A stretch of 40,101 nucleotides of DNA from a virus. Taxonomy: Duplodnaviria > Heunggongvirae > Uroviricota > Caudoviricetes. A program made the translations under genes and the position numbers. The DNA lies in the IMG/VR virus record IMGVR_UViG_2718217868_000001, positions 1 through 40,101 of that record; one strand, written 5' to 3'. The notes under the pieces are model-generated. The model worked only from the letters and a program-made list of their open reading frames with translations. It did not search any database and was not told the origin of the DNA. Below, one piece after another: positions 14,941 to 19,238 of the stretch (the stretch's first letter is position 1; every line of letters begins with the position of its first letter).

Positions 14941-15125
14941 ACGCCACAATTCAAACGATACCAGAGCTTCTTATCCAGACACGAGGCAATCAGACTGAAG
15001 TGGCAAGGATGCTTTCCTGCGCAAGAGGAACAGTGCTCAAGTACAACCGAGACAGCAAAGGCGAGCGTCATGTAATAGTTAACGGCGTCCTGATGGTCAA
15101 ACAGGGCAAGAGGGGAAGACGATGA
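14937..15125 (+). CDS. ninH: NinH-like protein
   Basis: ..GNQTEVARMLSCARGTVLKY.. parallels lambda NinH. Confidence 0.7.
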   Translation: MNATIQTIPELLIQTRGNQTEVARMLSCARGTVLKYNRDSKGERHVIVNGVLMVKQGKRGRR

Positions 15126-15745
15126 GACTCGAAAGCGTAGCTAAATTTCATTCGCCAAAAAGCCCGATGATGAGCGACTCACCACGGGCCACGGCTTCTG
15201 ACTCTCTTTCCGGTACTGATGTGATGGCTGCTATGGGGATGGCGCAATCACAAGCCGGATTCGGAATGGCTGCATTCTGCGGTAAGCATGAACTCAGCCA
15301 GAACGACAAACAAAAGGCTATCAACTATCTGATGCAATTTGCACACAAGGTATCGGGGAAATACCGTGGTGTGGCAAAGCTTGAAGGAAATACTAAGGCA
15401 AAGGTACTGCAAGTGCTCGCAACATTCGCTTATGCGGATTATTGCCGTAGTGCCGCGACGCCGGGCGCAAGATGCAGAGATTGCCACGGTACAGGCCGTG
15501 CGGTTGATATTGCCAAAACAGAGCAGTGGGGGAGAGTTGTCGAGAAAGAGTGCGGAAGATGCAAAGGCGTCGGCTATTCCAGGATGCCAGCAAGCGCCGC
15601 ATATCGCGCTGTAACGATGCTAATCCCAAACCTTACCCAACCCACCTGGTCACGCACTGTTAAGCCGCTGTATGACGCTCTGGTGGTGCAATGCCACAAA
15701 GAAGAGTCAATCGCAGACAACATTTTGAATGCGGTCACACGTTAG
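15122..15745 (+). CDS. Q: Late-gene antiterminator Q (lambda Q-type)
   Basis: 207 aa beginning MRLESVAKFHSPKSPMMSDSPRATASD.., essentially the lambda Q sequence as I recall it, with the Zn-finger region CRDCHGTG..CGRCKG. Confidence 0.9.
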   Translation: MRLESVAKFHSPKSPMMSDSPRATASDSLSGTDVMAAMGMAQSQAGFGMAAFCGKHELSQNDKQKAINYLMQFAHKVSGKYRGVAKLEGNTKAKVLQVLATFAYADYCRSAATPGARCRDCHGTGRAVDIAKTEQWGRVVEKECGRCKGVGYSRMPASAAYRAVTMLIPNLTQPTWSRTVKPLYDALVVQCHKEESIADNILNAVTR

Positions 15746-16178: not shown

Positions 16179-16502
16179 ATGAAGATGCCAGAAAAACATG
16201 ACCTGTTAGCCGCCATTCTCGCGGCAAAGGAACAAGGCATCGGGGCAATCCTTGCGTTTGCAATGGCGTACCTTCGCGGCAGATATAATGGCGGTGCGTT
16301 TACAAAAACAGTAATCGACGCAACGATGTGCGCCATTATCGCCTGGTTCATTCGTGACCTTCTCGACTTCGCCGGACTAAGTAGCAATCTCGCTTATATA
16401 ACGAGCGTGTTCATCGGCTACATCGGTACTGACTCGATTGGTTCGCTTATCAAACGCTTCGCTGCTAAAAAAGCCGGAGTAGAAGATGGTGGAAATCAAT
16501 AA
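16179..16502 (+). CDS. S: Holin S (lambda S107/S105)
   Basis: [41 protein letters not shown].. is near-identical to lambda S, including the dual-start MKM. Confidence 0.95.
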
Positions 16503-16962
16503 TCAACGTAAGGCGTTCCTCGATATGCTGGCATGGTCAGAGGGAACTGATAACGGACGACAGAAAACCAGAAATCATGGTTATGACGTCATTGTTGGCG
16601 GAGAGCTATTCACTGATTACTCCGATCACCCTCGCAAACTTGTCACGCTAAACCCCAAACTCAAATCAACAGCCGCCGGACGTTACCAACTTCTTTCCCG
16701 TTGGTGGGATGCCTATCGCAAGCAGCTTGGCCTGAAAGACTTCTCTCCGAAAAGCCAGGACGCTGTGGCACTGCAGCAGATTAAGGAGCGTGGCGCTTTA
16801 CCGATGATTGATCGCGGTGATATTCGTCAGGCTATCGACCGTTGCAGCAATATCTGGGCTTCACTGCCGGGCGCTGGTTATGGTCAGTTCGAGCATAAGG
16901 CTGACAACCTGATTGCAAAATTCAAAGAAGCAGGCGGAACGGTCAGAGAGATTGAGGTATGA
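16486..16962 (+). CDS. R: Endolysin R (lambda R lytic transglycosylase)
   Basis: [39 protein letters not shown].. is near-identical to lambda R. Confidence 0.95.
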
Positions 16963-17396
16963 GCAGAGTCACCGCGATTATCTCCGCTCTGGTTATCTGC
17001 ATCATCGTCTGCCTGTCATTGGCTGTTAATCATTACCGTGATAATGCAATCGCCTACAAAGAGCAGCGCGATAAAGCCACATCCATCATCGCTGATATGC
17101 AGAAGCGGCAACATGATGTAGCAGAACTCGACGCCAGATACACAAAGGAGCTTGCTGATGCTAACGCGACTATCGAAAGTCTCCGTGCTGATGTTTCTGC
17201 TGGGCGTAAGCGCCTGCAAGTCGCCGCCACCTGTGCAAAGTCAACGACCGGAGCCAGCAGCATGGGCGATGGAGAAAGCCCAAGACTTACAGCAGATGCT
17301 GAACTCAATTATTACCGTCTCCGAAGTGGAATCGACAAGATAACCGCGCAGGTTAACTATCTGCAGGAATACATCAGGACGCAATGCCTTCGATGA
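16959..17396 (+). CDS. Rz: Spanin inner-membrane subunit Rz
   Basis: [20 protein letters not shown].. N-terminal transmembrane segment plus coiled coil, lambda Rz-like. Confidence 0.9.
17152..17343 (+). CDS. Rz1: Spanin outer-membrane lipoprotein Rz1, embedded in Rz in the +1 frame
   Basis: Signal peptide with a lipobox (LGVSAC) followed by a proline-rich segment, fully inside Rz. Confidence 0.75.
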
Positions 17397-17843
17397 TAGC
17401 GATAATTTTACTCATCATCCTTCACATCTGGCTCTGTAGACAGGGTGGTGATCACTTCTGGAGTGAATCCAGATTAAACATCTCATTGCTGATGCTTGAT
17501 ATTGAGCATCTGGCGCGCGGTAAGGGGCTGCGTTGAGATAAGAGCCAGTTCATTACAAAGCCTATCTACGGATGGGCTTGATAATGAAACCAAAATTTAT
17601 TCTGGGTAACCAGTTACGGCAGTACAGCGAAACAACCCAAGCCAGAAAGTGGGGAAATAACACTGGCAGCCACTGAAAGATGAACCTCCTGCCTTATGGC
17701 AAAAAAGATTCTTTGTGGTGGCGGACTGATGGAAAGACATCGGTTATTGCAGAGGCCATTCAATGAGTGGTCTCGACAATGGCTTATACCCTGCACGGGA
17801 TAACTTAACTGATATCCCTTTTAACGGATAAACGGAGCCAACA

Positions 17844-18086
17844 ATGGCAGAGATTATTCCCATGACTGAAGAACAGAAATTCCAGTTAGAGATTTACAAA
17901 CTGGTCATGAACCAGAACGCAGCCGCAGAAGAAGCATTTCAGTTCATCGGCACTGACGAGCTGAAGCTTGAGCTATTCAAAATTCACTTCCAGTCAGGCG
18001 GCGCTAATTCAGATATCACGACCCGTACTATCGAAGCGGTGCGTAAATCGAAGGAAGCGTTAGACCTGTTCACCGCTGGAGTGTGA
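17844..18086 (+). CDS. Hypothetical protein (80 aa), lysis-terminase interval
   Basis: ORF with an AACGGAG site; I recall an 80-codon ORF at this position in P22, but did not verify the sequence. Confidence 0.5.
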   Translation: MAEIIPMTEEQKFQLEIYKLVMNQNAAAEEAFQFIGTDELKLELFKIHFQSGGANSDITTRTIEAVRKSKEALDLFTAGV

Positions 18087-18087
18087 T

Positions 18088-18477
18088 ATGGCTAAGGCCA
18101 AATGGCACAAACTCCCGGCGTTCACCATTCCGCTGTTTCAAAGTGCACACGTCTACCTCGCAACAACCAGAGAACAGTTTCAGCACGCTGATAAATTCCT
18201 TGGCGGCAGCGGGGATGAGAAGCCATTCAATCTTGGGCTTGCAAGCAACTATGAAAACACTGATACGGGTGAGCGATGCTATCTGATTGGAGTATTCGAT
18301 CAGCAGATCGCTACGCTCGTTCATGAGTGCGCCCACGTCTGCTTTTACGTTTGCTCTGATGTCGGCGTGACGACAAGGCCTGAAGATGCCAACGAGACGT
18401 ACTGTTACATGCTGGACAGGATGGTTAATCACTTCCTGCCATTCATTCAGGAGAAACAAGATGTATCACTGGAATAA
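18088..18477 (+). CDS. Hypothetical protein with an HExxH motif (129 aa)
   Basis: Start overlaps the upstream stop; contains ..LVHECAHVCFY... Confidence 0.5.
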   Translation: MAKAKWHKLPAFTIPLFQSAHVYLATTREQFQHADKFLGGSGDEKPFNLGLASNYENTDTGERCYLIGVFDQQIATLVHECAHVCFYVCSDVGVTTRPEDANETYCYMLDRMVNHFLPFIQEKQDVSLE

Positions 18478-18655
18478 TCAATCCCCTTATTGCCAATGCC
18501 AACGCTGCCCGTGCTGCGGGAAGATTGTTAACCAATTTACTGGCAACAATTTCTTCAAGACTGGTTATGGATATGGTGTTGCGGGTAGCGTTAATTGCTC
18601 TGGGGCTGCTGCTGAAACGACATCAAACACAGGCAAGCAGAAAGGAGCTAAGTAA
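18461..18655 (+). CDS. Small Cys-rich protein (about 64 aa), putative zinc ribbon
   Basis: AGGAGAAA site; CQCQRCPCCGK motif; start within the six-frame ORF 18386..18655. Confidence 0.4.
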   Translation: MYHWNNQSPYCQCQRCPCCGKIVNQFTGNNFFKTGYGYGVAGSVNCSGAAAETTSNTGKQKGAK

Positions 18656-18749
18656 TGGTAATCAAAGTTTGTTCAGGCTCTCAGGGCTTCGACAACCCAT
18701 CCAAATTCCGCGATGAATGGGATAAGCAAGCAGAAGGGAAATAATCAAT

Positions 18750-19238
18750 ATGGCAGCACCAAAGGGCAACCGATTTTGGGAGGCCCGCAGTAGTCATGGG
18801 CGAAATCCTAAATTCGAATCGCCTGAGGCGCTGTGGGCTGCTTGTTGTGAATACTTCGAGTGGGCTGATGATAACCCGCTATGGGAGGGTAAGGTATTTT
18901 CATATCAGGGAGAAATAATTAAGGCTAATGTCCCTAAGATGCGAGCCATGACTATTTCAGGATTGTGCACCTTCCTTGATATCACTAGGCAAACATGGGG
19001 AACCTTCCGGTCAATGGAAGGTTTTTCTGACGTCACATCACGAGCGGAAGACATCATCTACGACCAGAAATTCTCTGGCGCTGCCGCTGACCTTCTCAAC
19101 GCTAACATCATCGCCCGTGATTTGGGCCTCAAAGAGCAGTCGCAAGTTGAAGACGTGACACCTGATAAGGGAGATCGCGATAAGCGGCGCTCTCGTATCA
19201 AGGAGCTATTCAACCGTGGAACTGGACGCGATTCTTGA
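18750..19238 (+). CDS. Terminase small subunit (P22 gp3-like)
   Basis: [38 protein letters not shown].. matches P22 gp3 as I recall it; 162 aa. Confidence 0.9.

Follow-up and report, generated by a model that had tools for sequence, protein, structure and literature searches.

The DNA analysed here, called the window throughout, is the whole 40,101-nucleotide (nt) stretch of IMG/VR record IMGVR_UViG_2718217868_000001, a P22-like (Lederbergvirus) E. coli prophage. The subject is the interval between its lysis and terminase genes, which carries two copies of a structured hairpin element, a gene for a putative minimal metallopeptidase and the gene of a micro-protein. Positions 17380-18760 are identical to the prophage of E. 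coli strains H6 and H5. All genes named below are on the + strand. The Q-type antiterminator gene (15122-15745) is followed by the holin and lysozyme genes (16179-16962) and by Rz (16959-17396; Pfam Phage_lysis), within which Rz1 is embedded (17152-17343). A 50-codon open reading frame (ORF) of the Sf6 gene 65 family (17384-17536; phrog_11822) overlaps the end of Rz by 13 nt. After it comes a 307-nt non-coding leader without a credible ORF (17537-17843), which separates the lysis cassette from the DUF2560 gene and contains copy 1 (17551-17586; CATTACAAAGCCTATCTACGGATGGGCTTGATAATG) and copy 2 (17745-17781; TATTGCAGAGGCCATTCAATGAGTGGTCTCGACAATG) of the hairpin element. The original prediction, made from the letters of the window alone, had described about 450 bp without a convincing ORF after Rz. 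The first third of that stretch is the annotated 50-codon ORF and the 307 nt of the leader are indeed non-coding.

The ORFs of 80, 129 (containing HECAH) and 64 amino acids (aa; Cys-rich) that the same reading had listed were found at 17844-18086, 18088-18477 and 18461-18655, respectively. Its 29-codon ORF is also present, with coordinates shifted by one base (18655-18744 rather than 18656-18745). The 80-aa ORF is the DUF2560 gene (P22 Orf80/HK620 hkbM family; phrog_571), the product of which matches Pfam PF10834 over profile positions 1-72 of 72 with 147.7 bits against a gathering threshold of 25 (E 1e-43). The 129-aa ORF encodes a zincin-like protein of the ST64T Orf-129/phrog_1365 family with the motif VHECAHV. 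The 64-aa ORF has the Cys cluster CQCQRCPCC and an AGGAG Shine-Dalgarno sequence, and the 29-codon micro-ORF ends 5 nt upstream of the start of the gp3-type small terminase gene (18750-19238; Pfam GP3_package, E 8e-31), which forms the right boundary of the interval. As the interval shares its strand with the Q antiterminator, lysis and terminase genes, its position indicates that it is presumably transcribed as part of the Q-antiterminated late transcript.

The hairpin element has the form 5'-(G-UAG/UAA-Y)-CAUUA-CA-(8-11 bp variable stem plus loop)-GA-UAAUG-3', with a hairpin of 34-40 nt. In copy 1 the lower stem CAUUA/UAAUG is followed by a CA/GA internal loop, a 9-bp upper stem and a UACG loop. 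Copy 2 has the same architecture with a lower stem covaried to UAUUG/CAAUG, and the 2x2 internal loop (5'-CA/GA-3') is conserved across copies. An initial search of 110 sequences (596 kb) used the flanks alone and did not require pairing. It gave 118 matches on the + (gene-sense) strand versus nine on the - strand, and the nine were not hairpins. The centres enclosed by the flanks vary widely yet pair (AGCCCATC with GGTGGGCT, AGCGTCC with GGGCGCT, CAGGCAT with GTGCCTG, AAGCTCTTC with GAGGGGCTT and GAGGCCATTC with GAGTGGTCTC), and the paired centres include copies in Pantoea, Yersinia and Kluyvera prophages.

Pairing was quantified in an alignment of 13 sequences of equal length, which had been gathered by flank sequence only and not by pairing. 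In this alignment 96.7% of the pair cells were paired versus 84.5% in shuffles, and both sides had changed in six pairs. Controls in which the 3' partner was moved by 1-3 columns gave only 31-43% paired. A covariance model, R1, was built from the 13 sequences. In the 40-kb window R1 gave exactly two matches, copy 1 (57.2 bits, E 2e-12) and copy 2 (22.7 bits, E 0.002), and across 72 sources it found 70 copies, 70 of 70 being on the + strand. When the alignment was extended to 43 distinct sequences, 96.8% of the pair cells were paired and compensatory changes were seen in 10 of the 14 pairs (over both alignments the moved-partner controls gave 31-50%, and none of 500 shuffles reached the observed percentage paired or the observed covariation score). 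In 64 pair cells of the 43-sequence alignment a U of the 5' arm faces a G of the 3' arm (U.G). Read from the other strand, each of these would become a C.A mismatch, and thus the structure belongs to the + strand, either as late mRNA or as + strand single-stranded DNA. Base pairs of one strand kept through compensatory changes are what is asked of a structured cis-acting RNA, and they were found here.

The lower stem also covaries (CAUCA/UGAUG, UAUUA/UAAUA and UAUUG/CAAUG), indicating that the AUG which terminates the element is a pairing segment rather than a start codon. The terminal ATG was considered as a start codon and rejected: it leads into short, unrelated ORFs (MKP, MDIPLSG and MAYTLHGIT), and in some copies the last bases are ATA, compensated by a U at position 1. 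An independent scan of IMG/VR with an exact pattern returned at least 120 contigs carrying at least 46 distinct sequences. Among the matches listed every recognisable neighbour gene had the same orientation, lysis genes preceding the element and DUF2560 or terminase genes following it. The complete Sf6 and HK544 genomes each contain the element twice and, as in the window, it is confined to the lysis-terminase interval. The element is not annotated in the phage records examined and is absent from Rfam. Searches of Rfam 15 gave no family with E <= 1 at positions 17200-18900 of the window and none at the hairpin elements of nine further loci. In a Pantoea prophage (locus L019) a phage tRNA gene (85-157) follows a hairpin copy (39-74, 26 bits) at a distance of 10 nt.

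Junctions with related phages were mapped by megablast and local BLAST. There are two insertion points in the leader, at ~17551-17559 and at ~17741, and both coincide with a hairpin element. The first is occupied in E212, HF4s, epsilon34, HK544 and a prophage of a chicken E. coli by a gene that is Rha-like, KilA-N, GIY-YIG or unknown, and in the first four of these the gene lies directly upstream of the copy-1 equivalent. At the second, gp66 in Sf6 and a micro-ORF in HK544 and Emek are inserted just upstream of the copy-2 equivalent. Both sites are empty in the window. The proposal that this interval is a common site for accessory genes in P22-like phages was sound and extends to other lambdoid phages. 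Its occupants in relatives are Rha, KilA-N, GIY-YIG, Sf6 gp66, anti-CRISPR, Dec and other genes.

The spacing between the element and the genes on its two sides differs. In relatives the element begins 0-2 nt past the stop codon of the inserted accessory gene, and its conserved 5' flank is where phage sequences cease to resemble one another. Of 64 distinct ends of upstream ORFs, 30 leave exactly 1 nt between the stop codon and the element, and a further 12 end within 0-3 nt of it. The sequence G-TAG/TAA-Y tends to precede the element even where the ORF ends earlier, and hence the element appears to carry its own stop codon. The distance to the next start codon is variable, and the Shine-Dalgarno sequence of the next gene is outside the hairpin. 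The cassette of E212-type phages has the 9-nt repeat CATTACAAA at both ends. An ordinary terminator (AGCCTCGCATTCGCGGGGCTTTTTT) comes after the left copy, whereas the right copy is the hairpin.

Gene content also varies downstream of the 129-aa gene. ST64T, epsilon34 and phage L have the gene of the decoration protein Dec in this slot, which in the window is occupied by the Cys-rich ORF and the 29-codon ORF. The slot is bracketed by direct repeats, AATAATCAAT at 18473-18482 and 18740-18749 and GCAAGCAGAARGGA...TAA..AAT at 18633-18656 and 18726-18749, as expected if a segment between the zincin and small terminase genes had been inserted or duplicated. In a diverged relative (locus L008) a 110-aa ORF without a PHROG match (1671-2003) is found between the micro-ORF and a different small terminase gene, the position of Dec in phage L.

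The reading that we favour, with a probability of about 0.6, is that the interval is an accessory-gene (moron or cassette) zone at the junction of the lysis and packaging genes, and that the leader hairpins are RNA punctuation in the late mRNA. The element would act as RNA between cistrons of the late message. A stable 3' hairpin or processing site would end each accessory cistron, thereby insulating or stabilising the cistron upstream, and the conserved flanks may provide the short homology by which phage recombination swaps cassettes. So read, the hairpin is a handle on small-gene exchange among mosaic phage genomes and on the punctuation of a 25-kb late transcript. Some features of the element weigh against this proposal. 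A simple stabiliser role does not account for the conserved flanks or the CA/GA internal loop, which suggest instead a specific binding partner, and the 1-nt spacing from the stop codon could reflect a joint made at the level of DNA.

The position of the elements directly 3' of accessory-gene stop codons would also suit weak or conditional terminators, which would end accessory transcripts expressed from the prophage and be read through by Q-modified polymerase in lytic growth. E212-type phages have a canonical terminator after the gene-65 ORF, behind the same CATTACAAA flank, as this alternative would have it. We nevertheless consider it unlikely. The stem has no U-run and is followed by UGAUAAUG, and the terminator scan does not call the elements. 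Moreover, the 3' flank pairs and covaries with the 5' flank, which is not expected of a U-tract, and the strict conservation of the flank sequences is left unexplained. Quite unlikely is a new class of cassette-punctuation signal read by a specific factor, whether an attC- or REP-like folded-DNA site or an RNA processing or binding site. Such a factor would recognise the 5' box G-UAG-Y, the CA/GA loop, which is invariant, and the constant spacing of 1 nt from the stop codon.

That the hairpins are folded single-stranded DNA recombination sites of the attC or REP (repetitive extragenic palindromic) kind, at which a site-specific or HUH-type enzyme inserts and excises cassettes, seems to us markedly improbable. 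If it were so, lambdoid late operons would capture and shed accessory genes by means of a putative enzyme. The bracketing of the E212, HF4s and epsilon34 cassettes by CATTACAAA, with the hairpin as the right copy, is in its favour, as are the conservation of the flanks while the centre varies, the strand specificity of the structure and the exact ending of different genes at the element. The conserved G-TAG-Y 5' of the hairpin also speaks for it, being a sequence that we take to recall the GTAG of REP elements. However, no dedicated recombinase or HUH enzyme turned up among the annotated or called genes beside the element (no search aimed at one was made), and at its left boundary the cassette has, rather than a second hairpin, a 9-nt partial copy with an ordinary terminator behind it. 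Note that general phage recombination of the Erf/Red type, which is annotated in Sf6 and HK544, would give the same joints through short homology.

The leader as a whole occurs in 202 phage records, in which it is almost never annotated. Its carriers include the siphoviruses HK022, HK544, the mEp phages and ES18, and the Stx phages carry it in part; full-length homologues are 93-100% identical. The + strand RNA has a predicted fold of -102.5 kcal/mol (z -5.3 versus shuffled sequences; - strand z -2.7). A promoter and terminator consensus scan called nothing on the + strand in 17537-17843, with totals at chance level, its sole call in the leader being a weak terminator-like site on the - strand (17706-17685). 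An independent small RNA (sRNA) gene or packaging (pac) signals, both raised by the original prediction, are thus highly improbable despite the fold and the conservation: an sRNA would have neither promoter nor terminator above chance nor an Rfam family and would lie on the sense strand inside the late operon, known prophage anti-sRNAs map to the PR' site and not to the lysis-terminase interval (PMC4104026), and the presence of the same stretch in cos phages (HK022 and HK544) and headful phages alike argues against a packaging signal. A search for the P22 pac site, with a query that may be incorrect, gave no match, an uninformative result.

The closest published analogue of the hairpin element is PeSL (promoter-early stem-loop) of T4-type phages, in which a strong sigma-70 promoter is combined with a terminating stem-loop (Arbiol et al. 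2010, PMC2839356). Both are short conserved stem-loops that flank small non-essential genes in variable regions where genes are gained, lost and replaced, and in our phages too the stem-loop stands at the boundaries of variable cassettes. In contrast to PeSL, the scan found no promoter-like site at either element of the window, there is no U-run, and the element has a conserved lower stem and CA/GA loop and is part of a lambdoid late operon.

The likeness to REP elements and bacterial interspersed mosaic elements (BIMEs) lies in the ~35-nt imperfect palindrome, the strand specificity and the intergenic location in operons near stop codons. REP elements are known to stabilise mRNA 3' ends. The sequences are however unrelated and the element described here is confined to one interval of phage genomes. 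No gene resembling those of REP-associated tyrosine transposases (RAYTs) was among its neighbours, although no search aimed at one was made. The boundary sequences (bsq) of the Sf6 record are likewise short sequences common to different lambdoid phages at module junctions and are thought to promote exchange between phages. However, Sf6 bsq2-bsq7 include neither copy of the element, nor is it one of the terminators that this record annotates, and bsq are defined by DNA similarity whereas the element has a covarying structure of the RNA type. Integron attC sites share the conserved outer boxes, the variable centre, the strand-specific fold and the location at the 3' end of each cassette, but their boxes differ, no integrase or attI-like site was seen beside the element and its left joint is only a 9-nt repeat.

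The ORFs of the interval belong to families that are already catalogued and are uncharacterised. None of them matched a PADLOC defence model, and literature searches for orf129 and DUF2560, the epsilon34 genome paper and papers on BTP1 transcriptomics and the anti-sRNAs of enterohaemorrhagic E. coli (EHEC) yielded nothing about the lysis-terminase interval. These genes have been carried for decades as hypothetical proteins in the annotation of P22-like and lambdoid phages and are now testable. None of the three results, the hairpin element, the zincin family and the micro-protein, alters how phages are understood.

From its sequence and predicted structure, the 129-aa protein is a putative minimal stand-alone metallopeptidase of the gluzincin type that would be made late in infection. 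Homologues are Orf-129 of ST64T, ORF47 of ST104 and gp70 of epsilon34, and the family falls into 206 clusters at 90% identity. At 50% identity it has 860 representatives, nearly all of them stand-alone proteins of ~100-160 aa. H79, E80 and H83 are invariant in 32 close homologues. Among 83 homologues of 23-49% identity the sole invariant columns are H79, E80, H83 and E103, and so the HExxH noted in the original prediction is a real motif that is conserved in homologues, a point on which that prediction had been made to depend. Comparison with the L008 relative gave 48 synonymous and 10 non-synonymous codon differences, and the variable sites per codon position were 13/11/73.

The AlphaFold2 (AF2) model of the protein has a predicted local distance difference test score (pLDDT) of 84.2 and a predicted template modelling score (pTM) of 0.80. 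It contains strands at 11-13, 21-25, 50-56 and 63-69 and a helix at 28-37, with HExxH in helix 74-91 and E103 opening helix 103-128. This predicted fold matches the zincin-like core, which consists of a beta-sheet and an N-terminal helix ahead of two active-site helices (PMC5512222). H79, H83 and E103 would bind zinc and E80 would be the catalytic base of a late-expressed metallopeptidase acting on a phage or host target. E103 lies 20 residues past H83, and in thermolysin the spacing of H146 and E166 is likewise 20 residues. Structure comparison against BFVD gave 28 matches with E <= 0.001 (best 6e-11), which come from very different phages, and the wider list includes two proteins named SprT-like, one PolyVal metallopeptidase and one metalloprotease. 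Matches to solved structures were weak, as was a profile match to myroilysin (E 0.008).

The profile search that had originally been proposed for this protein yielded phrog_1365 (E 2e-37), and no Pfam or NCBIfam model passed its cut-off, which weighs against the peptidase assignment. The SprT-like model PF10263 gave 12.7 bits (E 0.12), short of the cut-off of 25.6, and SprT-like Pfam matches were found in 4 of the 83 relatives (best E 1e-4). The HExxH...E site might instead serve a non-proteolytic metal-dependent activity or be a structural zinc site, or the protein might be a regulator. The weak local match to the HExxH-type peptide hydroxylase model TIGR04267 (E 0.002, below cut-off) is consistent with such a role, and there was no strong structural match to any solved peptidase. 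We find these alternatives rather doubtful, as an invariant tetrad on two consecutive helices after a beta-sheet is the signature of zincin peptidases (PMC5512222) and those related phage proteins that have names are labelled SprT-like or metallopeptidase.

The putative metallopeptidase resembles the polyvalent-protein zincins, the SprT-like proteins and the minigluzincins, which are also phage-borne and of ~110-130 residues, in having an HExxH helix, a Glu on the helix that follows and a small beta-sheet ahead of them. Unlike the polyvalent-protein zincins it is stand-alone and not fused into a large protein, and it lacks the third histidine of SprT/WLM-type sites, Glu103 being the candidate third ligand. 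It also differs from the known zincin groups in that neither a membrane nor a pro-segment context accompanies it. The zincin gene again stands between the lysis genes and the terminase in Pantoea, Yersinia and other E. coli prophages, whose terminases and portals differ, and at several loci it has a hairpin element on one side or on both. This minimal stand-alone family, which stands between lysis and terminase genes in every context inspected, is a candidate late-acting phage protease. An 87-aa E. coli entry called 'protein NinF' (P0113) is 96% identical to the C-terminal 40% of the zincin and is probably truncated or misnamed.

The 29-codon micro-ORF is preceded by the Shine-Dalgarno sequence AAGGAG and, by its pattern of conservation, is a member of a conserved micro-protein family. 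Diverged versions of 23-30 aa keep the core GF[DN]NP[ST]KFR[DE]EWD. They are found in E212 (23 aa), HK544 and Emek (MSAEGFNNPSKFRDEWDSSVKSK), Cronobacter phage ES2 (MKSCNATQGFDNPTKFREEWDRQTKEA) and L008 (30 aa), and the DNA differences of five diverged versions are mainly in third codon positions. Relatives of the micro-ORF occur in 316 viral contigs, where they usually come directly before the small terminase gene. In the phage records examined the family carries no annotation. The commonest 23-aa form is found a few bases upstream of two different small-terminase types, and the 29-aa sequence is called 'uncharacterised protein' on 445 contigs. The 23-aa forms are missing from the protein collection and from PHROGs, and all forms match Pfam DUF2740 weakly (E 0.016-0.12). 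A micro-protein of 23-30 residues precedes the small terminase in hundreds of viral contigs and has been missed by many gene callers and phage records.

Its location suggests that the micro-ORF may be translationally coupled to the terminase gene or may function with the terminase. In HK544 (locus L009, 1207-1278) the micro-ORF region has no annotation. The annotated frame of orf53 in Emek (locus L010, 1106-1267) cuts across the conserved micro-ORF, and of the two it is the micro-ORF frame that is conserved. Cronobacter phage ES2 has a copy (locus L011, 1501-1584) between the Q antiterminator gene and the holin gene, right after a terminator-like hairpin. Given this location the micro-ORF is not bound to the terminase and behaves like a cassette that can move.

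The Cys-rich ORF and the micro-ORF are probably both real genes, with stronger evidence for the micro-ORF; the Cys-rich ORF is probably real but dispensable. The Cys-rich ORF overlaps its neighbours at both ends, its start with the end of the zincin gene and its stop with the start of the micro-ORF (TAATG). The product has a Cys cluster (C11, C13, C16, C18 and C19; CxCxxCxCC), from which we would guess that it binds metal, and a C-terminal half of low complexity. The L008 homologue is 64% identical and retains the length, the Cys cluster and the gene order of DUF2560, zincin, Cys-rich ORF and micro-ORF, and the N-terminal 30 codons show five synonymous and four non-synonymous differences. Some observations weigh against it. 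Close relatives differ by one synonymous versus six non-synonymous changes and thus lack a synonymous excess, and frameshifted, truncated and fused variants exist. The C-terminal half evolves freely. Only six protein clusters contain the protein, tblastn against the phage collection gave no match and there was none to the Pfam, PHROG, NCBIfam or PADLOC models.

The 50-codon ORF that begins within the end of Rz is annotated (RefSeq WP_001139680; Sf6 gene 65; phrog_11822, E 4e-38) and its product has a hydrophobic N-terminus. Its variable sites per codon position are 8/9/14, compared with 20/19/53 for Rz by the same measure; those of the DUF2560 ORF are 5/3/15. Codon variants of the 50-codon ORF are 13 synonymous versus 20 non-synonymous and two homologues have an in-frame stop. 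Coding constraint is not clear from this substitution pattern and we regard the coding status of the ORF as ambiguous. The HF4s record names the gene-65 homologue (1570-1737 of the locus) 'Rz2, o-spanin', whereas the real Rz1 lipoprotein ORF (lipobox LLGVSAC) is inside Rz.

Two ORFs within the leader, 17584-17676 and 17696-17803, were considered as genes and rejected, their frames being shifted in homologues by insertions and deletions in a poly-A run and elsewhere. In other phages it is the poly-A indels that disrupt the frame of the second, which has 35 codons. This ORF appears as the N-terminus of ST64T orf118 (locus L006, 1249-1605) because a deletion of ~40 bp fuses it in frame to DUF2560. 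A different hairpin, GGGATA-N10-TATCCC followed by TTTT, is located at 17798-17823, with 20 nt between it and the DUF2560 start. Twenty-one homologues have it unchanged, it is not called as a terminator by the scan, and the stretch around it is common to Stx phages. In HK022 (locus L110, 1495-1933) DUF2560 is cut after ~27 codons and an HNH endonuclease gene takes over, with the upstream leader and hairpin intact.

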